A stretch of DNA of 12,600 nucleotides, from the NCBI GenBank assembly GCA_043739185.1, contig JAYUEN010000345.1, positions 1-12,600 on the forward strand. Direction: 5' to 3'. The position numbers and the translations under genes were made by a program. Below the pieces are notes generated by a model that did no database searches, was not told the origin of the DNA, and saw only the letters and a program-made list of their open reading frames with translations. Below, piece after piece: positions 1,196-12,209 of the stretch (position 1 is the first letter of the stretch; every line of letters begins with the position of its first letter). This DNA is from Bdellovibrionales bacterium (lineage in GTDB: Bacteria > Bdellovibrionota > Bdellovibrionia > Bdellovibrionales > JAMPXM01).

Positions 1196-2881
1196 ATGGG
1201 TTGTAAAAGCATTTTATTTTTGACTTTATTTCTCATTTGTTTAAATGCAATTGCCAAAGTTCCAAAACGAAGTGTGGCTTCAGATTCTCCAAAGCAAGTG
1301 AGAGGTGGCTCTCAGCCATGCAAGAGAAATGCAGTCGGAAGTGTTGTGGCCGGGCCAAAAGATCTGTTTAGTAAGAGGGGTAAACTCGAGCTTACTCTAA
1401 GCTATGATTCGAATGTCGATGAAGATGGCAATACTCAATATTGCTATCTGACCGAAAATAATGAACGTTCTCCGACCTTACATTTAAAACCCGGCGATGA
1501 TCTTATCTTGACGATCAGAAATAATACTGTCGCCCAGTCAAGTGATGCGATTGTACAAATGCAAAAAGATATGGAGCCAAGGCCCGGAGAAAAATCTCAA
1601 GCCTGCGGACCGGCGACAAAGATGGATTCTTCAACAACAAACGTACATTTTCATGGCACGAATGTTTCTCCCAAATGCGGGGAAGACGAAGCGATCTATA
1701 CAATGATTAATCATGGAGACTCATTCACCTATAGAGTTCATTTTCCAAAAGATGAACCTCCTGGCCTTTACTGGTATCATCCGCATGTACACGGAGTTGC
1801 TGAGCCAGCTCTTCTGGGCGGCGCATCGGGTGCGATCATTGTAGAGGGGATTCAACACATTCAGCGAAAAACGGCCGCTCTTCGAGAACGTGTTTTAGTT
1901 TTAAGAGACAATCTTGTACCGGGTAATCCAAAGCCAGGTGGACTTATACCTTCTTGGGATTTGTCTCTAAACTATGTCCCAGTTCCTTATCCGAAATATT
2001 CTCCAGCTATTATTAAGATGCGGCCCAATCAGCGGGAGCTTTGGAGAGTTTTAAATGCCTCAGCGGATACGATTATCGACCTGCAGCTCACTTACGATGG
2101 TGTGGTGCAAAGTTTACGCGTCGTAGGATTAGATGGAGTGCCAACGGGATCTCAAGATGACAATCACCTTGGAACAGAAATACTTAAAAATCATATTTTT
2201 CTGCCACCTGCTGCGCGTGCAGAGTTTATTATTGACGGCCCAAGCAAAGGAATTAAGACGGCGCAGCTTTCAACTCTCGCTATTGATACTGGCCCGGCTG
2301 GAGATAATGATCCAGCTAGAACAATTGCTTCGATTCAAACAGATGCGAAGGCATCACTCCCGCCCGTTAAAATTCCGCATGAATTTCATTTGCCCTTCGA
2401 ACAGCGCTTTGAGGGTGTCACAAATACAAAGGTGAGTATTAAAAGAAAACTCTACTTTTCTGAGGTCATTTCAAATCCAGCAGATCCGGCAAGTCCTACA
2501 GATTTTTTCATTACTGTTGACGGAGCCAAGTCCGAGAAATTTAGTACTCAAGCGGAGCCAGCTATTACCACAACTGAAGGCACAGTTGAAGAGTGGACGA
2601 TTGAAAATCGATCAACTGAGAATCATGAGTTTCACATACATCAAATTCACTTTTTACTGACCGGACGGAATGGACAGACAGTGCTAAAGGACGATCAGCA
2701 GTTTTTAGATATGGTCGACATACCTTATTGGTCAGGAGATAAAAAGGACCCTTATCCAAGCGTAACTTTGCAGATGGATTTTCGTGGCAATATCGCAGGA
2801 GATTTTGTTTATCACTGTCACATCCTCGGACATGAGGACAATGGTATGATGGCAAAAATTAGAGTATTACCTAGAAAGTAG
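1196..2881 (+). CDS. Three-domain multicopper oxidase (laccase/CueO-like), secreted
   Basis: All four Cu-ligand motifs intact: HFHG, WYHPH, HEFHIH, HCHILGHEDNGM. Sec-type signal peptide (..CLNAIA). Confidence 0.96.
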   Translation: MGCKSILFLTLFLICLNAIAKVPKRSVASDSPKQVRGGSQPCKRNAVGSVVAGPKDLFSKRGKLELTLSYDSNVDEDGNTQYCYLTENNERSPTLHLKPGDDLILTIRNNTVAQSSDAIVQMQKDMEPRPGEKSQACGPATKMDSSTTNVHFHGTNVSPKCGEDEAIYTMINHGDSFTYRVHFPKDEPPGLYWYHPHVHGVAEPALLGGASGAIIVEGIQHIQRKTAALRERVLVLRDNLVPGNPKPGGLIPSWDLSLNYVPVPYPKYSPAIIKMRPNQRELWRVLNASADTIIDLQLTYDGVVQSLRVVGLDGVPTGSQDDNHLGTEILKNHIFLPPAARAEFIIDGPSKGIKTAQLSTLAIDTGPAGDNDPARTIASIQTDAKASLPPVKIPHEFHLPFEQRFEGVTNTKVSIKRKLYFSEVISNPADPASPTDFFITVDGAKSEKFSTQAEPAITTTEGTVEEWTIENRSTENHEFHIHQIHFLLTGRNGQTVLKDDQQFLDMVDIPYWSGDKKDPYPSVTLQMDFRGNIAGDFVYHCHILGHEDNGMMAKIRVLPRK

Positions 2882-2927
2882 ATGTCTGCCGTTCTAACAT
2901 TTAGTGTAAGATAAACCTAAATCGGTA

Positions 2928-3386
2928 TTACTGAACTTTCTCTATACGCAATACGAATGACTGGCAAAAAGGATAAAAAATCCAGCCTTGATCCCAATAG
3001 GTTCTAATTCCAAATGTGTCAGTATTATTTAGCGCCGCCTCACCATCATTTACGCAGCCCACATTACGATTAACGCCATAACGTTCAGTCGTGTCATCCA
3101 CGATAAATCCAAATTCTGATCTATTTGATATGAGTTCTGCAAAACAAATGTGGTGACCTTTTCTTTCTGAAGCCTTGTTTATTGCGTAAGAAAAACTGCC
3201 CAAAGGCAAAGCTTCTCTTTTTTCAAAGGCTTCAATTCTGGATTGAAGGTTTGTTCGCACGAGTTCACAATTATTTTGAGTATCTGGACGTTCAAAATTA
3301 AAAATTACTTTTCGAGAAGGATTATTTGCCAGAGATATTGAGGGACCCAAAAGTACTGTCAAAAAAATCCTAACGAGTATATTCAT
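2928..3386 (-). CDS. Secreted hypothetical protein with 4 Cys, paralogue A (WDQGWIFxPFCQSF family)
   Basis: ATG at 3386 preferred over 3434 because AAGGGG RBS precedes it and it yields a signal peptide (MNILVRIFLTVLLGPSISLA). Homologous to 6701..7153. Confidence 0.85.
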   Translation of the reverse strand: MNILVRIFLTVLLGPSISLANNPSRKVIFNFERPDTQNNCELVRTNLQSRIEAFEKREALPLGSFSYAINKASERKGHHICFAELISNRSEFGFIVDDTTERYGVNRNVGCVNDGEAALNNTDTFGIRTYWDQGWIFYPFCQSFVLRIEKVQ

Positions 3387-3434
3387 TTCTGAAGCCCCTT
3401 TATGAAATCCTTTAATAATTAATTTCATAGGCAT

Positions 3435-3452
3435 TAATAGTGGACACTATTA
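3435..3452. promoter_or_regulatory. Perfect palindrome TAATAGTG-GA-CACTATTA, candidate operator
   Basis: 8-bp arms, 2-bp spacer, about 50 bp upstream of paralogue A. Overlaps a minus-strand TATAAT (3454..3449). Confidence 0.5.
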
Positions 3453-3511
3453 TAATGTTGAAAGTCATGTACAAGCATTTTTTCAAACTATGCGGGAATC
3501 GAGTAGAAATT

Positions 3512-4783
3512 TCATAATTTAAAGTCTTTATGGGACTGAGTTTCGCTTGGTAAGCTACTCTTAGATTCTATGCGGAATATCTTCTGAATTTGAAATACCC
3601 CAATTGATGGATTAGAGCTACCATGAAAACCGCATGTAAAATTAAACTCCCCCTTTTTGCTAGCTAAAAATATTTGGTGAGTTGAATGCTTTGGTTCAGC
3701 CATCAAATCTAGATTTAAGTTCTTTGAACTTAATCGAAACATTTTATCGCTAGCTGTTAAAATAAGTTCAATAATTTTTCCCGCTTCGATTTTAACTTTC
3801 AGCGGCGTACAAGTTCCATCCGATTTACCTGCAATCGAAATTGTCAAATCGGGTATTTTCAACAATTCAATTACCTCGTTTCGTTCCCAATGAACGGCCA
3901 AATCGTAGGCGGTTAGGCCGTCGGTATTTTTAACTCTGCGATCTGGGGCGCCCAACAAAAGATCGGCGACGATTGAGGGATTGCCACCAAGAGCAGCGTA
4001 CATCAGGGCTGTATTGCCGAGACTGTCTTTGGCATCCATATCCACCTCGCTGACTATAAAAGAATCGTAAACATCTTGGACGTTATTCTTTACAGCTTTA
4101 ATGAGCGGAGTTTCTCCGTTCTTATCAGTAACATTCACGTACGCACCGCTATTAATGAGTAAATCGACGATGTCCTTTGTTTTACTAAAAGCTCCCCCTC
4201 CGGCCCCGTGAACGGGAGTATTGCTGGCGCCGCAACTTGCATCAAATAAAAACATGAGCGGCGTACATCCTTGTCCGTTAGCAAAATTAACATTTGCACC
4301 ACATTCGATTGCCCGCTCAACGTTCTCTACATTATTTGCCTGACGTATAGATTCAATCAAATTTAAGTTCTTATCTTTTGGGCAAGGATCTTGCGCTGGG
4401 ATATCTCCAAATATATCACAATTTAATGGTATTTTTTCATAATCAGCTTTTACATTACTATAGGTAGCCTCGATAATTCTGCTATCTTTCACTTGAGCTT
4501 CTAGACTTGTCGACGGGTCAAAATTATCGACATAAAAAATCTTACCAGCTTTATATTTTCTCTTATTTATCCCTAATGCCTGAGTATAAGTTGACCCATC
4601 AGGTAAAAAGTATTGAATGGTACTTTTTAGTCTTGGTCGACTGAGATCAATATCAATTTGAAAAGTAGTCGTATTGCTCGGAGGCAAAACTCCCTTACAG
4701 GCCAATGATTCTGCATTTAAGATATTTGGTAAAAACAAAAATATCACTGTGGATATTGATTTTATTTTTAAAGTCTTGCTCAT
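3512..4783 (-). CDS. Secreted ankyrin-repeat protein with C-terminal EfeO-type cupredoxin domain
   Basis: Signal peptide. Ankyrin motifs GANVN..GCTPLM, GAYVNVTDKNGETPLIKA, DAKDSLGNTALMYAA, DGLTAYDLA. C-terminal CTPLKVKIEAGKIIELILTA..KKGEFNFTCGFHG fits the Cupredoxin_1 pattern. Confidence 0.85.
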   Translation of the reverse strand: MSKTLKIKSISTVIFLFLPNILNAESLACKGVLPPSNTTTFQIDIDLSRPRLKSTIQYFLPDGSTYTQALGINKRKYKAGKIFYVDNFDPSTSLEAQVKDSRIIEATYSNVKADYEKIPLNCDIFGDIPAQDPCPKDKNLNLIESIRQANNVENVERAIECGANVNFANGQGCTPLMFLFDASCGASNTPVHGAGGGAFSKTKDIVDLLINSGAYVNVTDKNGETPLIKAVKNNVQDVYDSFIVSEVDMDAKDSLGNTALMYAALGGNPSIVADLLLGAPDRRVKNTDGLTAYDLAVHWERNEVIELLKIPDLTISIAGKSDGTCTPLKVKIEAGKIIELILTASDKMFRLSSKNLNLDLMAEPKHSTHQIFLASKKGEFNFTCGFHGSSNPSIGVFQIQKIFRIESKSSLPSETQSHKDFKL

Positions 4784-4811
4784 GATTTATCCTCTTCTAA
4801 TTACTGAAATT

Positions 4812-5486
4812 TTAATTGGCTGCACCTTGAGCAATCCATTCACGAATTGCTTTAATTTGGTCATCCTTAAGCTGAGAATAGCCTTCTTTTGCTGGAGGCA
4901 TTCGCTTTTCATCTTTTCGTTCAAGCGCGATGACAAGTCCTGACTCATCTACATTTCCCGGCAAAACTAATTCACGAGGCGAATTCAAGAGTTCCTCTTT
5001 AGTGAGTAGGACTCTTTTGCCTGAGTTGTCTGCCGAATGGCACTTAACACAAGTCACCTGGAAGATGTTTTTATTAATTGATTCAAAGCTTGGTTGAACG
5101 GGTTCGGGCGTGGGATCGGGGGTGCCCCGCTGAGGCTTCTCAGGAGCTCCCATCTCAATCCATGTCCAAAGAATAGCAAGTTCTTGGCTAGTAAGTGTGC
5201 CTTTTCTTGGCATGGTGTGATCATCAAATACTGCGATCTTAATTTTACTTAAGTGAGCAAGCACATTTGAATAAGTTTCTAGATTTACACTGCCAGCATT
5301 GCCGTGGCACGAGACACAGTTTGAAACAAAAACATTTTGATATATGAAGTTAAAAGAAAGTCGTACTTTCTGCTCTTTGGGCAAATCAAAATTTTGAATT
5401 GCCCCTGATGGATCTTTATATATTTTGTATGCGCATCCAACAAAAATTAAAGAAGCTAAAAAAATAAAACTTGAGAGCTTTTTCAA
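4812..5486 (-). CDS. Di-haem c-type cytochrome lipoprotein (two planctomycete-type cytochrome c-like domains)
   Basis: TTG start, lipobox-like IFVGC, CVSCH and CVKCH, each followed by a distal Met (TMPRKG, RMPPAK) and a WI-x-x-GA ending. Pro-rich linker between domains. Confidence 0.88.
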   Translation of the reverse strand: MKKLSSFIFLASLIFVGCAYKIYKDPSGAIQNFDLPKEQKVRLSFNFIYQNVFVSNCVSCHGNAGSVNLETYSNVLAHLSKIKIAVFDDHTMPRKGTLTSQELAILWTWIEMGAPEKPQRGTPDPTPEPVQPSFESINKNIFQVTCVKCHSADNSGKRVLLTKEELLNSPRELVLPGNVDESGLVIALERKDEKRMPPAKEGYSQLKDDQIKAIREWIAQGAAN

Positions 5487-5500
5487 TATAATGACTTCTA

Positions 5501-6085
5501 CTAACGAACAGCTTCTGCTGAAATTAAAGTGCCATCCATTTTAAGATAGACGTTCAACTTTTTAGAGCCATCCATAGTGGTCATGTGTGCAAGTGCTACC
5601 TCTTGACCATTTAAATTCGTTTTTGACATTTCAACAGAGCCGAGATCATCAAAAAATGGCGCGGCTTTTGAGTCTGTCGGATTGTCTAATAAGTAATGTA
5701 GAGAATTTTCAGTCAATGTTACAGAATCGACACCCGGCCATGCGCTGTCTGGACCAGCGGTTCCACCATCAATAACTTGAAAAGCCAGAGGTTTTCCGTC
5801 CTTGTCGAAAGTCATTGCAACTTGGAGTGCGTTACCTTTCGCAGGTTGAGTTTGTGAAACCATCACTTTGAAGGCTACAGGAGCTTGATTTTCTACGTCC
5901 GCAACCTCAACCTTTGCAGTATTCTTCACGAAAGAAGCATCAATCTTGTTAAGCGTGACAAGTCGATCTATTCTATGGACAGAAAGTTCCGCAATTTTCG
6001 CTGATGTTGTTGCGCCGTCACCATGAGCAAAAGCAAAACTGCAAGTGAACAAAATTGCCGATAAAATAGCTGAAGTCGTCTTCAT
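5501..6085 (-). CDS. Secreted hypothetical protein, mature N-terminal His, two internal repeats
   Basis: AAAGGGGA RBS; signal peptide ending AFA then HGDG. Repeats AELSVH..FDKDGKPLA and TENSLH..LKMDGTLIS. Confidence 0.85.
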   Translation of the reverse strand: MKTTSAILSAILFTCSFAFAHGDGATTSAKIAELSVHRIDRLVTLNKIDASFVKNTAKVEVADVENQAPVAFKVMVSQTQPAKGNALQVAMTFDKDGKPLAFQVIDGGTAGPDSAWPGVDSVTLTENSLHYLLDNPTDSKAAPFFDDLGSVEMSKTNLNGQEVALAHMTTMDGSKKLNVYLKMDGTLISAEAVR

Positions 6086-6153
6086 TTAATCCCCTTTGTT
6101 AAAAAATTCTACAGCAAGCTACATTTTAAAATTTAAAAAACATTCGCTCAAAA

Positions 6154-6465
6154 CTAATAGCCTTGGCCCTTCATTAACAAAACTACCTCTGCCAATTTTG
6201 CGTCTACCATCTTCGGGTCTTTGCTATTCATTGCAGCCTTCACGCAGTGATGCATATGGCCCTCGATGATCGAGCACTCAAGACTTTTCAATGCAGAACG
6301 AATCGCCTTAATTTGGACGATAATCTCAGGACAATATCTTCGATCTAAAATCATTCGCTCAACACCTTCGACTTGACCCTTGATGCGTTTTAGGCGCTTT
6401 AGTTCAGGCGTATGATCATGCGGTGTAACCGCTGGCTTACTTAATTTAATTGGCTTTTTTCTCAT
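6154..6465 (-). CDS. csoR: CsoR-family Cu(I)-sensing transcriptional repressor
   Basis: RLKRIKGQVEGVERM, YC..H(+25)..C(+29) spacing identical to the CsoR Cys36/His61/Cys65 ligands, preceding Tyr and a downstream Glu retained. ATG at 6465 has a GAGG RBS and is preferred over 6492. Confidence 0.92.
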   Translation of the reverse strand: MRKKPIKLSKPAVTPHDHTPELKRLKRIKGQVEGVERMILDRRYCPEIIVQIKAIRSALKSLECSIIEGHMHHCVKAAMNSKDPKMVDAKLAEVVLLMKGQGY

Positions 6466-6504
6466 TTTCCTCGCCGTGTCGCACATTAGCATTGTTAAGA
6501 TTGG

Positions 6505-6532
6505 ATGATACCGTATGGGGGTATCTGGTCAA
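6505..6532 (-). promoter_or_regulatory. sigma70 promoter of the csoR operon (TTGACC-N16-TATCAT)
   Basis: -35 at 6532..6527 and -10 at 6510..6505, each 5/6 consensus. The operator fills the spacer and overlaps the -10. Confidence 0.75.
6507..6525. promoter_or_regulatory. CsoR operator GATACCGTATGGGGGTATC
   Basis: GATACC/GGTATC inverted repeat around a G-tract, the established CsoR/RcnR-family operator architecture. Directly upstream of csoR. Confidence 0.88.
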
Positions 6533-6700
6533 TACAATTAATTATCTGGTATACATTGAAAGTTAAGTTGGCAAATTAGAAATAGAGTTCTTGCCATGAG
6601 TTAAAATTACCAATAGTGTGGCCGAAAAGGGGAAAGATACAAAGTGTTTCTAATTGTATCTTAATTAATAACTAACTTAATTTGAAAAGGATTGGAAAAT

Positions 6701-7153
6701 ATGAAAGCACTTTCGCTAGTTTTACTATTAAGCAGTGTGGTCTCATCTATGGCTTTAGCTATGGAGTTTAACTTTGGCAGACAAGATGCTCAAAACGACT
6801 GCGCAAATGTAGCTACAACACTTGCATCAAGAGTTAAAGCCTTCTCTGAAAATGCAGGAGTGTCTATAGGTGATTTTTCACTTGTCGTTAATAAAGTAGC
6901 AAAGCGAAAGAGTCACAAGAGTTCAATTCATTATTTTTGCGTAGCTCAATTGGAATCAAAAAATGCTCAATATTCATTTGCTACAGCTCAGAGTGAGGAG
7001 AATTATGGCGATGAACGAAATGTTGCCTGTGCGCATGATTCTGAAGTTGCGATGGGTGATTCTAGCGTTGTTGGAGTGAAAACAAATTGGGATCAAGGAT
7101 GGATTTTTAATCCCTTTTGCCAAAGCTTTAGTGTGTTCATAAAACGGAATTAA
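6701..7153 (+). CDS. Secreted hypothetical protein with 4 Cys, paralogue B (WDQGWIFxPFCQSF family)
   Basis: AAAGGA RBS then ATG at 6701; signal peptide ending MALA. Aligns with 2928..3386. Confidence 0.85.
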   Translation: MKALSLVLLLSSVVSSMALAMEFNFGRQDAQNDCANVATTLASRVKAFSENAGVSIGDFSLVVNKVAKRKSHKSSIHYFCVAQLESKNAQYSFATAQSEENYGDERNVACAHDSEVAMGDSSVVGVKTNWDQGWIFNPFCQSFSVFIKRN

Positions 7154-7158
7154 CGATT

Positions 7159-7536
7159 ATGTTTAAAAATGTTTTTTTAAATAAGTTAATTCTAGTTAGC
7201 CTCACATTTGTTTTTGTTGGATTTTTTGGAGAGGTGACTAGAGCTGAGGAGCTTAGTTTTTTTGGAGGAGCAGTTAGGGCTAATTTGACCTGGATGACTC
7301 CGCCATTAGTTTCAAAAGTCGCGAGATTGAAAATTGAATTGTTCGATGATTCAAAGCATATTTACGATATTGACCCATCACTGATTTCTGTTGGGCTCTT
7401 TATGGCTGGAATGGCGACTGACTTTCAAGATGTTGTGGCATTAAACGATGCCCATAACATGGGTTTTGAAACTTTGGGCTTACTTAGACTTGCTATTGAA
7501 TCTTTTTGCTACTTAATCTTAAGGAGTTTACTATGA
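7159..7536 (+). pseudogene. Secreted YtkA/FixH-like Ig-fold protein, probably 3'-truncated
   Basis: Signal peptide, then ANLTWMTPP..RLKIELFD..SVGLFMAGM resembling the first half of YtkA-like domains. The tail becomes atypical and overlaps the copA 3' end by 44 bp. Family call is by eye. Confidence 0.45.
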
Positions 7537-9838
7537 CTGAAACCGAGCTCAAGCTCATCGCAAGAGCTGCGATCATGGGGCTCAGTAGCCAGCCAAAAGC
7601 AGGATACAAGACGCCCGCTGCGACCGGAACTCCAAAAGCGTTGTATACAAAGGCGAAAAATAGGTTTTGCTTAATATTCGCAATTGTCGACTCACTCAAT
7701 TCTCTCGCGCTTATGATACCCTTTAAGTCGCCTTTGACCAATGTTACACCTGCACTTTTCATTGCGATATCGGTACCCGTACCCATTGCAATTCCGACAT
7801 TAGCCTGAGCTAAGGCGGGGGCGTCGTTAATGCCGTCTCCTGCCATCGCAACTATCTTTCCATCTGCTTGAAATCTTTTAACGACTTCAACTTTTTCGTT
7901 CGGGAGAACGTCAGAAATAATCTCATCCACTTTAATTTTTTGAGCAACAGCATTTGCCGTTCTTTTGTTATCACCCGTGACCATAACTACTTTTAAGCCT
8001 AATTTTTGAAGTTTCTGAATGGCCTCGGCACTTGTTTCTTTGATAGGATCTGCGACCCCGATGAGTCCAGCTATACGAGCTTCGACGGCCACAAACATCA
8101 CGGACTGCCCATCGTCGCGAAGTCTATCGGCAGCGATTTGAACCGATGACACATCGACATTCGCGCTTTGCATGAGCTTGAGATTACCAACGCTGATTTT
8201 TTGACCCAAGACTCTTCCTTCAGTGCCCATCCCTGTAATGGATCTAAACTCAGTCGTATCTTGCAGAGAAATTTTTCTTTCTTCCGTAGCTTTGACAATA
8301 GCCGCTGCAAGCGGGTGTTCGCTCTGACGCTCAAGGCTCGCAGTCAATTGCAAAAGCTTTTCTTCTGTGATTTCTCCAAATGGGAGAATTGAAACAAGCT
8401 TTGGTTTACCCATTGTCAGAGTGCCGGTTTTGTCGACGATGAGGACATTCACTTTTCGCAGCAACTCGATGGCTTCAGCATCTTTAAATAAGACACCCAT
8501 TTGGGCCGCCCGACCAGTTGCAACCATAATTGACATGGGTGTAGCTAGCCCCAGAGCACAAGGGCACGCAATGATAAGGACAGCGACTGCATTCACGATT
8601 GCGAATGCTAGTCGAGGTTCTGGCCCCCAAAATCCCCAAATAAAGGCCGTGAAAATAGCCACGCCCACAACTGTCGGAACAAAATAAGCAGAAATTTGAT
8701 CAGCGAGTTTCTGAATGGGAGCTCTTGATCTCTGGGCATCAGCAACCATTTGAACAATCTGCGACAGCAAAGTATCTTTACCAACTTTATGTGCTTGAAC
8801 TAATAGGGACCCCGTACCATTCATTGTCGCTGCTATTACTTTTGAGCCGGAGCTTTTTTCAGTCGGAATAGACTCACCAGTCACCATCGACTCATCAACC
8901 GCACTTGTGCCTGACTCGACAATTCCATCGACTGAAATTTTCTCTCCTGGACGCACTCTAATTTTGTCACCTACGACAATTTGTTCAATTTCGACTTCTT
9001 GTTCAGAGCCATCAGAAGAAACTCTTCGTGCTGTTTTAGGTGCAAGCTGTAAAAGAGCTTTGATCGCAGCACCTGTTTGCCCTCTAGCTTTGAGTTCTAA
9101 GACTTGTCCTAGAAGCACTAAGCTTACGATGACTGCTGCTGGCTCAAAATAAAGATCGAGCTGGCCGGTACCAGTATCCCTGAATGAACTCGGAAAGATA
9201 TTCGGAAAAAAAGTAGCCACGAGACTAAACAAATAAGCGACGCTGACGCCAAGCCCGATGAGCGTAAACATATTTGGACTTTTATTTTTCAATGACTGCC
9301 AAAATCTTTGATAAAAAGGCCAGCCGGCCCAAAGAACGACCGGCGACGCCAGTAATAGTTCAAGGTAATTGAGCAAGACCTGCCTATGAGATTCGTGAAT
9401 GAGATGGCGACCTCCCATTGTAATAAACAACAATGGAATACTAAAGCCCGTTGCGAGCCAGAATCTTTTGCGCATATCGAGATATTCGGATTGATCCTCC
9501 TCACTATGCGCGGTCAGCGTGACGGGCTCAAGGCTCATTCCACAAATCGGACAACTTCCAGGGCCGTTCTTACGGATTTGTGGATGCATAGGGCAGGTAT
9601 ACTCGGCACTATGAGAAGGCTTTGAGACTGGGTTTGGCTCTATGTTTAAAAATGAACTTGGATTGTGGTCAAATTTTGATTTGCATTTTGCACTACAGAA
9701 GAAATAACTCTTTTGCTGATACACTGATGAGCTAATTTTGTTGCTCCTCGGGTCTACTTTCATGCCGCAAACAGGATCAGTTTCTCTTTCGCTAATATCA
9801 AGATGCGAGTTTTTTTGATTTTTATTTTCTTCGATCAC
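7493..9838 (-). CDS. copA: Cu(I)/Ag(I)-exporting P1B-1 ATPase with N-terminal YHS and heavy-metal-binding (YTCPMHP) domains
   Basis: DPVCGM..YFFCSxxC (YHS), [45 protein letters not shown] and MxxSS transmembrane Cu(I) ligands. GTG start with an in-frame stop just upstream. Confidence 0.96.
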
Positions 9839-9860: not shown

Positions 9861-10214
9861 CTAAGGGTGATGCTCAGCATCCATTTTGTCAGATGACATT
9901 TTTCCTTTTTTCATCTTTGCATGCATATTTTTGTGCATCGTTTTCATATCGCTCATCATCGGGCAGTCCATTTTACCCTTCATGTCTTTACATTCGGTCA
10001 TCATCGCATCGTGACATACTACTTCAGTTTTGCCAGACCTTAAACAGTCGGCAGCCTTTTTGTACATTTCAGCCATATGTTCATGCATCTGAATCTTGTC
10101 TTGAGGATCTTCCACCTTTGATTCCTTAGTAGTCATTTCTTCTGCTTGAGAGAGCGGACTGAAGACACCAACAAGTAAGATGGCTAGTAAAAAAGAGCGT
10201 AGAGTTGATTTCAT
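9861..10214 (-). CDS. Small secreted Met/His/Cys-rich protein, candidate periplasmic copper chaperone or store
   Basis: AGGAGA RBS, signal peptide ending SQA. Mature ~93 aa contains 16 Met, 7 His, 4 Cys (hand count). Lies 22 bp upstream of copA. Confidence 0.85.
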   Translation of the reverse strand: MKSTLRSFLLAILLVGVFSPLSQAEEMTTKESKVEDPQDKIQMHEHMAEMYKKAADCLRSGKTEVVCHDAMMTECKDMKGKMDCPMMSDMKTMHKNMHAKMKKGKMSSDKMDAEHHP

Positions 10215-10423
10215 ATTTTTTCTCCTAAGGTTTAAATGTTATCTATCGTTCTGCAATAGAGAGACCATTGTGTTTCTAACTAGAGTGTGAAGCCTTGTGA
10301 TGAGTTCTCATTCACGTTTTCGCCATTAAGAATTAAAAATTATGTCGGTCACAGGTGTTGAGGATTTTTTGAGGTCCAGCTAGAGAGGCTCGGACAATTT
10401 GTCCCAAATCGATGACTAAATGA

Positions 10424-10564
10424 CTCCATAAGCTGATGCATGGGCTCAATTGGACAGAATGCCTTTTCATATTAGTGCTCACACTTGTGCCCACTAGCAT
10501 TCTTGAGATTCGAAAATGGTATCGAAATTCTAATGCAAAAGTATTGGTAAACCAGCACGTTTAA
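10424..10564 (+). pseudogene. Remnant resembling the C-terminus of a type II cation-transporting P-type ATPase
   Basis: Unlisted frame reads LHKLMHGLNWTECLFILVLTLVPTSILEIRKWYRNSNAKVLVNQHV*, resembling the L-x-W..L-L-V-P..E-I-R-K-W last helix of Cation_ATPase_C. In-frame TGA at 10421. Confidence 0.5.
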
Positions 10565-10624
10565 TAAGTTTGACTGCCACATTTTAATTTCACTTGATTG
10601 GCGGGAATTCATCAAGGCAGGGAG

Positions 10625-11116
10625 CTAATTCGAATTAATTTTAGTTTTGCTTTCACCAATCCAAATTAATATTAAATCTTTTTCTTCGTGAGTTAGCCCT
10701 GAGGACGGATGAATGATCCAATAAAGTCGAGTCGGCATTGAACCTCTTATCGTAACATCTTGAATGGCATCTAAATCCTCGTCGGGTTTCCCATGACCAG
10801 CGAACGGAAATCCCTTTGAAATTTCAAGGTGCTTTTTCGCCTCACTCCTATCGCTTTCTATCAACTGATGAACAAACGGAATCGCACTATACCAGGGAGC
10901 AGAATTTGTAGTTGAGTGGCAAGCTGCACATTTTTGATCAAAGATAGGCTTAACTTTTATTTGATAATTTTTATTAATTTCAGCATAAACTAAATCAAGA
11001 TCTGGCTTCGTAGAATCTAACTTTGCAGCTTGAGTATGAACTCCGTGATGATGACCCTCGTGAGCTTTAGAAACAAAGCTATACGTTAGAAAAAATATTA
11101 TAAATATGTACTTCAC
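10625..11116 (-). CDS. Haem-binding domain (Haem_bd-like) monohaem c protein with N-terminal His-rich tail
   Basis: Signal peptide then HEGHHHGVH. KPIFDQKCAACHS..PWYS..EAKKHL..MP..Y..IHP..LT-EEK..WI fits the Haem_bd pattern. GTG start with AGAAGG RBS. Confidence 0.85.
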   Translation of the reverse strand: MKYIFIIFFLTYSFVSKAHEGHHHGVHTQAAKLDSTKPDLDLVYAEINKNYQIKVKPIFDQKCAACHSTTNSAPWYSAIPFVHQLIESDRSEAKKHLEISKGFPFAGHGKPDEDLDAIQDVTIRGSMPTRLYWIIHPSSGLTHEEKDLILIWIGESKTKINSN

Positions 11117-11139
11117 CGAAACCTTCTCTCAGATCAATC

Positions 11140-11676
11140 TTAATACTTAATTGTCTTTAGTTTTAACACAGTTTCAGTAGCAAGAAATCCACCAACGAGC
11201 ATTCCTAAAAACCACAATCCTACAAAACTTAAAGCTAACTCTGCACCAGCGAACCAAAAAACTCCAAGCGATGCCCCAGCCAATGCAAAAACTTGCAAGA
11301 ACTCAGTTCCTCGCATGACTCGTAACTCCTCAATTGTCAGAAAATATCCTGCCGTAAGAATACTAAAACTTATGAAAAATACACCACAAGCAATCATACA
11401 GGCACCATGTCCCCACTGGAGCATAAACCAATCGGCCAGAGAATGTGTGGTACCAAATGGATTCATACCGAATTGATGACAAATGGATAAAGAAAAAAAT
11501 CCAATCGTCATATGAATTCCAAGAAGTTTCGCAAAAACTATCCAAGCACTTGGATGAAGAAGCGCATGAACCTGACTTAGTAAGCCTTGTTCAATATGCG
11601 ATGGAACCTTTAGTTCTTTAACATTCAAGAACTCATTATATTCTGCTAACCACTCTTTTGGGTCATTTGCCTTCAT
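11140..11676 (-). CDS. Putative membrane anti-sigma factor with Cys/His motifs
   Basis: ATGA 4-bp overlap with the sigma gene. Short cytoplasmic N-terminus and about 4 hydrophobic segments. SICHQFG and HGACMIAC motifs. Confidence 0.75.
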   Translation of the reverse strand: MKANDPKEWLAEYNEFLNVKELKVPSHIEQGLLSQVHALLHPSAWIVFAKLLGIHMTIGFFSLSICHQFGMNPFGTTHSLADWFMLQWGHGACMIACGVFFISFSILTAGYFLTIEELRVMRGTEFLQVFALAGASLGVFWFAGAELALSFVGLWFLGMLVGGFLATETVLKLKTIKY

Positions 11677-12209
11677 GGCATCTCTCCCTTTTTTGCTATT
11701 GCTTTTAACTTTGCAACCGCTCGACTCAAAATTTTACGAACATTGCTTGGCGAAGTACTGAGCGTTAAAGCGATCTCCTCAAAAGTTTTTTCGCTCACAT
11801 ATCTCAGATGAAGCACGCTCTGTTGATCGGTCGAAAGTTGATTCATCAAATTTGTGACCTCAGAAAACTTATGCTCATTTGTTGGTGATTCATCGTTGAT
11901 TGAAACCTCGCCATCTCTTTCAAGTTTTCTCTCCATTCTTAAGCCGTCGTTTAACACTGATTTTGTAATCGAGTATATCCAGGGTAGAGCAGGTAAAGTT
12001 TGATTATAGAGATGTCTTGAACGATGCATTTTCAGAAAAACTTCCTGAAGGTATTCACTTGCCCTTTCATCTTTCCAAATGCGACTTTTTAAAAATCCAT
12101 AGATTTTTGCCGAATGCCGATCATAGAGAGCCCTAAAAGCAGCTTCTGCCCCAGATTGATACATCACCATGAGTTCCTCATCTGAAAGATTATCTAGTTT
12201 CATCCGCAC
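11673..12209 (-). CDS. ECF RNA polymerase sigma factor
   Basis: SDEELM..AFRALYDRH, QEVFLKMHRSRHLY..PWIYSI (region 2), LRYVSEKTFEEIALTLSTSPSNVRKILSRA (region 4). True start may be the ATG at 12203. Confidence 0.95.
   Translation of the reverse strand: MRMKLDNLSDEELMVMYQSGAEAAFRALYDRHSAKIYGFLKSRIWKDERASEYLQEVFLKMHRSRHLYNQTLPALPWIYSITKSVLNDGLRMERKLERDGEVSINDESPTNEHKFSEVTNLMNQLSTDQQSVLHLRYVSEKTFEEIALTLSTSPSNVRKILSRAVAKLKAIAKKGEMP

Follow-up and report, generated by a model that had tools for sequence, protein, structure and literature searches.

A candidate CsoR-repressed envelope module of a PepSY-like protein and a c-type cytochrome in a copper island of Bdellovibrionota

We analyzed a 12.6-kb stretch of DNA (the window), which is the entire contig JAYUEN010000345.1 of a 4.85-Mb genome assembly (GCA_043739185.1) from a Bdellovibrionales bacterium. 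On its minus strand lies an operon coding for a CsoR-family repressor and for three proteins, a tandem PepSY-like protein (protein A), a di-haem cytochrome c lipoprotein (protein B) and an ankyrin-cupredoxin fusion (protein C), all of which are exported. Our favored reading, to which we assign a probability of about 0.5, is that these genes belong to a copper island with a patchy distribution in the Bdellovibrionota and form an envelope module repressed by CsoR, with protein A holding a metal ion by a haem of protein B. A role of A and B in copper redox chemistry, in one direction or the other, seems to us an even bet. The co-oriented gene order csoR-A-B-C given by the initial annotation was confirmed on the list of open reading frames, with intergenic gaps of 68, 14 and 28 bp (Table 1), and no terminator-like sites were found on the minus strand between the four reading frames. 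The sequence of the window shows zero differences from the contigs of three DNA runs of one study, and contigs of run X1 tile positions 2900-7600.

Table 1. Coordinates of the operon, its control region and neighboring copper genes in the window.
Feature	Position	Strand	Basis or remark
CsoR-family Cu(I)-type repressor, reading frame of 112 residues	6154-6492	-	PF02583, E 6e-25; start probably 6465
Protein A, secreted, tandem PepSY/DUF6488-like	5501-6085	-	Sub-threshold DUF6488 match, fold model, conservation; predicted partner of B
Protein B, di-haem cytochrome c lipoprotein	4812-5486	-	Cys18 lipobox; C57/C60/H61...M92; C146/C149/H150...M196
Protein C, secreted, beta-rich N-domain + ankyrin + cupredoxin	3512-4783	-	Domain matches, fold model; optional accessory
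Sigma70-type promoter-like hexamers, TTGACC-16-TATCAT (-35/-10)	6505-6532	-	10/12 consensus matches
CsoR-type operator palindrome, GATACC-N7-GGTATC	6507-6525		Lies between and over the promoter hexamers
copA-type P1B ATPase (YHS + HMBD)	7493-9838	-	Domain search; 1000 bp upstream of csoR, same strand
Multicopper oxidase	1196-2881	+	Reading frame and domain search; convergent, 630 bp from C

The regulator scores 87.8 bits against the PF02583 profile (cut-off 22.8 bits), and an ATG at 6465 is more likely to be its start than 6492, because a GAGG ribosome site precedes that codon. Its X-Y-Z ligands are Cys-His-Cys (C54, H79 and C83, with spacings of 25 and 4), which fits the definition given in PMC4235346; the CsoR motif is also covered in PMC11672702. 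According to PMC4235346, the Cys/His pattern alone is not predictive of the metal, and a second-shell tyrosine appears to predict selectivity for Cu(I). In our protein, the second shell comprises Tyr-53 and, by alignment, Glu-102, which follows the last cysteine by 19 residues versus 16 in Mycobacterium tuberculosis. The Tyr-Cys pair recurs in 26 of the 27 CsoR-family proteins found in the related loci. A second CsoR-family member of the genome lies on another contig. The initial annotation had placed both a promoter and an operator in front of csoR. The operator is unique in the window and recurrent elsewhere, but promoter matches of this kind are no more frequent in the window than chance predicts (27 found, 27.8 expected). 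The palindrome has a single match in the window, where 0.10 are expected (a match turned up in 19 of 200 shuffles), and in many related loci a TTGAC sits 3-4 nt ahead of the operator. We surveyed 44 loci that contain a gene for protein A for TACCC-N5-GGGTA, allowing at most one mismatch and up to 4.5 kb upstream of that gene. The operator was present in 18 of them, 16 of the 25 loci with CsoR and two of the 19 loci without it, against a genome background of 17 matches in total, or 0.016 per 4.5 kb. In two loci (L070 and L071) it lies 80-86 bp before the protein A gene itself. At the level of sequence, these envelope proteins appear to be controlled by a CsoR of the copper type whose operator is conserved.

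The 44 loci come from 40 genomes and comprise the window, three further loci and 40 regions covering 46 profile matches, from which we omitted the window's own match, a duplicate of L002, a partial match at a fetched locus and three weak ones (two of these were retrieved afterwards). They include kin, and the counts are not independent. Among 401 genomes of the phylum, profiles match protein A in 41, protein C in 15 and the protein B family in 166. The gene for protein B comes immediately after that for protein A in 36 of the 44 loci; if the whole fetched stretch is counted, 42 of them have it. CsoR is found in 25 loci, CusA in 17, CopA and a multicopper oxidase in 13 each and protein C in 12, and any copper gene (CsoR, CopA, CusA, oxidase or CopC) in 31, or in 27 if CsoR is not counted. 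The homologues are thus linked to each other and, for the most part, to copper genes. The four-gene order itself, which the initial annotation proposed to follow across genomes, is no conserved unit: exactly csoR-A-B-C occurs in just 5/44 loci, and protein C is missing from most of them. Because of these locus counts, we describe A and B as the conserved core and C as an optional copper-island gene, and the wider B family is not copper-specific. Seven additional loci have protein B nearby in every case and CsoR in four, with none in the other three. Six metagenome loci, scanned with an alignment of A-B fusions, contain a reading frame for protein A in five, two of these with CsoR; the sixth locus is fragmentary, and none holds the fused gene. 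A plasmid search with protein A gave no match.

Proteins A and B are probable partners in a complex, as gene adjacency, natural fusions and structure prediction together suggest. Such fusions account for 10 of the 252 A-family hits, and all of them carry the C-terminal haem domain of protein B alone; their record names are uninformative. Of the complex among exported proteins that the initial annotation had envisaged, the A-B pair is supported by prediction, with a score of 0.76 versus 0.02 for the best control. The mark used for this score is reached by 116/157 solved pairs versus 2/215 mismatched pairs, a calibration that is roughly applicable to the alignments used. At least 95% of the contacts are shared between prediction runs, and the partners have a predicted local distance difference test (pLDDT) score of at least 88. 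The predicted interface involves residues 34-45, 93-99 and 133 of protein A and 158, 170-172 and 180-194 of protein B. Interface residues of protein A are more conserved than the remainder (0.68 versus 0.49, permutation p 0.001). In protein B, the interface residue Pro-170 is kept in 34/36 proteins encoded next to protein A, in 3/16 from loci without protein A and in none of three paralogues of the genome, a contrast to which shared ancestry contributes. A correlation of pairwise identities between A and B (rho 0.45, 36 gene pairs) was not used, since kinship alone predicts it.

A fold model of protein A (pLDDT 89.8) contains two helix-plus-sheet units. Its best fold matches are all modest: FoxB with a Z score of 7.0 (root mean square deviation 3.7, 122 aligned), YpeB with 5.2 and CD1622 with 5.0, and similarity to YpeB, CD1622, YpmB and UipA as a group spans Z 4.0-5.2. 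Foldseek returned nothing at E ≤ 0.001, and no PDB entry matched the protein A profile under E 0.8. Atlas features gave PepSY and DUF6488 as leads only (score 0.78). Against DUF6488 (PF20098, cut-off 27 bits), the first repeat of protein A scores 16.9 bits (E 0.006) and two homologues 26.9 and 26.8, all below the cut-off; DUF6488 is a single domain of about 110 residues, protein A a two-unit protein. The two-repeat structure rests on the fold model, because a BLAST comparison of the two halves of protein A detected no repeat (E 5.4). The initial annotation's "His1 two-repeat secreted protein" therefore stands as to its repeats in the model, which sequence comparison does not see, and falls as to His1, which is not a conserved feature. 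Histidine occupies this column in 86/238 sequences, and an AxAH-like motif occurs in 116/238, about half of the family; we rejected His1 as the main site of the protein. These figures refer to an alignment of the window protein and 237 of the 252 hits, with hits outside 170-330 residues dropped. An ExxxH motif is located on a helix of each unit, and its residues are almost invariant in the family: Glu-33 in 223 sequences, His-37 in 237, Glu-126 in 235 and His-130 in 234, with the full set intact in 216. Where one of them is replaced, the new residue is usually another ligand (E33H 13 times, H130E three times). Conservation, these Glu/His swaps and weak coevolution lead us to propose Glu-33, His-37, Glu-126 and His-130 as a putative 2-Glu/2-His metal site. 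The coevolution signal weakly suggests an antiparallel arrangement of the two helices, with Glu-33 facing His-130 and His-37 facing Glu-126.

Protein B was correctly identified by the initial annotation as a di-haem cytochrome c lipoprotein from its two CxxCH motifs and its lipobox cysteine. Its C-terminal domain is PSCyt1/FoxE-like and contains the motif SP[LR]E..PG..DESG. The cysteines and histidine of the C-terminal haem site and its axial methionine are invariant in 43/43 homologues, defining a His/Met c-type cytochrome. The nearest solved relative of the B profile is FoxE (PDB 5mab, E 8.2e-08), the match covering profile positions 146-225 only. The number of haems per homologue is one in 13 proteins, two in 28 and five in two. 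The latter two (L051:4953-6581, plus strand; L065:7516-9207, minus strand) could form a longer electron wire.

We propose that cytoplasmic Cu(I) would release CsoR from its operator and allow transcription of the operon; the regulator's fingerprint and the operator are observed, and from them we infer induction. Proteins A and B would then be exported, and the first helix of protein A would dock on the C-terminal haem domain of protein B, as adjacency, fusions and the predicted complex suggest. Protein A would hold a metal ion in the 2-Glu/2-His site contributed by its two ExxxH helices, and the His/Met haem of protein B may exchange one electron with this ion. The likeliest direction would be the conversion of Cu(I) exported by CopA to the less toxic Cu(II), with the electrons leaving via cytochromes and not directly to O2. 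Protein C would be a separate accessory handling Cu(I), and the module would act alongside CopA, Cus and multicopper oxidases rather than replace them. Oxidation of Cu(I) is favored because nitrogen and oxygen ligands stabilize Cu(II), because CopA delivers periplasmic Cu(I) and because protein B resembles an oxidase; that A and B oxidize Cu(I) to Cu(II) is still a tentative assignment, with the odds somewhat against it. The delivery of Cu(I) to the periplasm by CopA is described in PMC4600104. More specifically, the pair may be a haem-coupled copper oxidoreductase, in which Cu(I) bound by a PepSY-fold subunit is offered to a FoxE-like cytochrome that passes the electron to the respiratory chain or to an outer-membrane haem-porin, a possible but distinctly doubtful scheme.

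The opposite direction would make A and B a cupric reductase that draws its electrons through protein B and produces Cu(I) either for uptake or for export by a CusA-type resistance-nodulation-division pump. Cus exports Cu(I), CusA-type pumps occur in 17/44 loci, above oxidases (13) or CopA (13), and the top fold match of protein A is the PepSY-bearing siderophore reductase FoxB. However, the nearest solved relative of protein B is an oxidase, the nitrogen and oxygen ligands of protein A would stabilize Cu(II), and the window is without a CusA gene; we thus consider a reductase improbable. Protein A may alternatively be non-catalytic, either a cap or chaperone that protects the haem site of protein B or helps it mature under copper stress, or a metal sponge resembling UipA and LanP, with protein B serving ordinary envelope electron transfer. 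Periplasmic copper targets the assembly of cytochrome c (PMC4600104), the tandem-PepSY proteins UipA and LanP bind metal and are given no redox role in the part of PMC9988556 used here, and His-37 itself falls inside the predicted interface. Permanent A-B fusions, in contrast, are more readily explained by a functional unit than by a chaperone that binds transiently, and protein A keeps four discrete ligands and is wanting the acidic lining of LanP. We regard a non-catalytic protein A as unlikely.

Several observations weigh against a CsoR-repressed copper module with a metal site by the haem. The strict operator is missing from nine of the 25 loci with CsoR. The FoxB match is no closer than those that common arrangements give, and FoxB would argue for reduction rather than oxidation. 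Helix-helix coevolution in protein A is weak and noisy (the top seven pairs have position sums of 159-167, where 47% are expected), and Glu/His sets may also bind iron, manganese or zinc, or form structural hydrogen-bond pairs. The A-B complex was predicted without haem or metal and hence yields no metal-haem distance. The B family is broad, found in 166 of the 401 genomes versus 41 for protein A, and 10 of 15 loci with protein B only combine it with a haem-porin gene and have no labeled CsoR, CopA, CusA or oxidase. Copper genes are wanting in 13 of the 44 protein A loci, and a scan of the neighbors in 11 of these turned up no metal-homeostasis family. Several of the copper-free contigs are short, yet six (L044, L048, L055, L058, L072 and L073) span 17-20 kb.

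The 13 copper-free loci would also fit a reading in which A and B serve another metal or substrate, iron for example, as an adaptor for a phylum-wide module of cytochrome, YceI and haem-porin that was merely recruited into copper islands. FoxE and FoxB both act on iron, and a haem-porin gene lies near protein A in 18/44 loci and occurs in 120/201 genomes, often in the order cytochrome-YceI-porin. Of the 10 B-only loci with a haem-porin gene and no labeled copper gene, nine have YceI called as well; CopA adjoins protein B in two of the 15 B-only loci. Against this reading, CsoR operators precede protein A in several gene orders, and protein A shares its co-oriented run with copA in five loci and with cusA in three, besides CsoR in 19. 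Moreover, no iron-uptake family was seen next to the 11 scanned copper-free loci. We therefore judge a role outside copper handling quite improbable. The haem-porin is an unannotated protein of about 370 residues (for example L063:2434-3549, minus strand), with an N-terminal CxxCH, an invariant methionine and a porin-like remainder; searches of Pfam, NCBIfam and the PDB gave no match. It may resemble Cyc2-type haem-porin fusions. Relatives are found on contigs C105, C354 and C84/C104 of the genome G000.

Protein C matches ankyrin and Cupredoxin_1 domains, in agreement with the fusion initially annotated. Type-1 (blue) cupredoxins use the ligands His...Cys-x-His-x-Met. In protein C, the spacing is Cys-384-x-x-His-387, and neither an upstream histidine nor an axial methionine is conserved. 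We thus rejected a type-1 blue copper site; instead, Cys-325, Met-348, Met-361, Cys-384 and His-387 are invariant in 48/48 sequences, and this Cys2/Met2/His set would suit Cu(I) binding or transfer. A fold search with the whole model returned ankyrin proteins only, and when part of the cupredoxin domain served as a sequence query, all hits had E ≥ 1.5. A tail of 23 residues (3512-3580, minus strand) extends beyond the end common to all 12 homologues of the loci, which suggests that a stop codon was lost at a junction formed by rearrangement. We also considered a fixed three-protein complex, in which protein C would scaffold A and B and which would replace copZA or feed the neighboring oxidase. 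Genes A, B and C are consecutive in seven of the 44 loci, and 11 of the 15 genomes with protein C also have protein A. But protein C is absent from 32/44 protein A loci and found without A in five other loci (four of these with CopA or CusA), copA is adjacent, and the oxidase of the window is without counterpart in the other loci. We found no evidence that the ankyrin protein serves A and B as a scaffold, and nothing tested ties it physically to them. Such a fixed complex is highly improbable.

The contig is a copper island, which besides copA and the multicopper oxidase contains genes for an SCO protein, a haem-binding protein and an extracytoplasmic function (ECF) sigma factor. The initial annotation had seen the operon as standing in place of copZA, which does not hold: copA lies upstream on the same strand in the window, and in 5/44 loci it is part of protein A's own co-oriented run. 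The sole HMA-domain match of the genome sits on a different contig. It had also suggested that the module feeds the nearby multicopper oxidase, for which we found no support, as this oxidase clusters with none from the other 43 loci; a specific tie was accordingly dropped. The window's intergenic DNA ahead of copA yielded no operator-like site. Genes for the ECF sigma factor, a membrane partner, the haem-binding protein and a small secreted protein rich in Met, His and Cys (9861-12209, minus strand) run into copA, which may here be under ECF instead of CsoR control.

We compared the module to characterized systems. Like the CsoR-controlled copZA and cso operons of Bacillus subtilis and M. tuberculosis, it has a repressor of this family, with its Cu(I) ligands and second shell, and a palindromic operator at the promoter; unlike them, the genes directly under the operator encode the exported redox and metal proteins A, B and C and not copZ or copA. 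As with CopG, CopI and CueO/CutO, these are envelope proteins linked to copA and cus, but the redox center would be a c-type haem rather than a copper cluster. CopG, which has a thioredoxin-like domain with a CxCC motif, has been proposed to oxidize Cu(I) and is one of the periplasmic factors whose genes accompany copA and cus (PMC7558416), and CopI is a copper-induced cupredoxin (PMC4600104). Neither this domain nor the motif was found in A, B or C, and A and B gave no match to the CopG, CopI or CueO/CutO families in Pfam and NCBIfam. FoxE, the Fe(II)-oxidizing di-haem cytochrome of Rhodobacter ferrooxidans, is the best PDB match for protein B and shares its His/Met haems (PMC10654088), but only the C-terminal domain of protein B matches. 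Protein B is a lipoprotein, its family has one, two or five haems, its partner is protein A and its regulator CsoR; neither foxY nor foxZ turned up, and the conserved neighbors of the loci include no foxY-like cluster. Protein A would resemble UipA, LanP, FoxB and DUF6488 in its putative PepSY-like alpha/beta units, of which this small secreted protein has two in the fold model. What sets it apart is a discrete 2-Glu/2-His set where there would be many carboxylates, and its pairing with or fusion to a cytochrome c.

No description of a CsoR-A-B system was found in the literature searched (subscription journals mostly out of reach, supplements not covered), nor were papers on DUF6488 or on copper handling in Bdellovibrionota, which agrees with the initial annotation's failure to recognize the combination from characterized systems. 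The module is thus apparently an undescribed variant of envelope copper defense with a two-protein core. How Gram-negative envelopes handle Cu(I) without multicopper oxidases or O2 has so far been answered only in part, by CopG and CopI. Proteins A and B are a candidate of just two small, soluble proteins, for which ligands can be named, an interface is predicted and single-chain fusions occur in nature. With them, the reach of CsoR in Bdellovibrionota would extend to exported redox proteins. If the haem-coupled scheme is true, copper detoxification would be wired to c-type cytochromes, independently of multicopper oxidases and CopG, and a first function would be at hand for a DUF6488-like fold and for the phylum-wide cytochrome-porin module of these bacterial predators.

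The locus also points to two more unannotated conserved proteins besides the widespread haem-porin. These two secreted proteins precede protein A, one (of the L046:8846-9769 type, plus strand) in 20/44 and the other (of the L041:1691-2308 type, minus strand) in 18/44 loci. The 307-residue protein of this pair has many invariant His, Met and Cys motifs and no match in Pfam, NCBIfam or the PDB; it largely alternates with protein C (both in three loci, C alone in nine, the 307-residue protein alone in 17). In the window, two paralogous secreted proteins of about 150 residues (2928-3386, minus strand; 6692-7153, plus strand; 43% identical) flank the operon and point outwards. They have one relative in L001, and a database search returned nothing but the query protein. 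Finally, a His-rich secreted protein of about 255 residues without Pfam match (L040:12109-12882, plus strand) is encoded divergently from csoR and heads cusA-tolC runs in 16/44 loci, which usually bear two operators about 100 bp apart.

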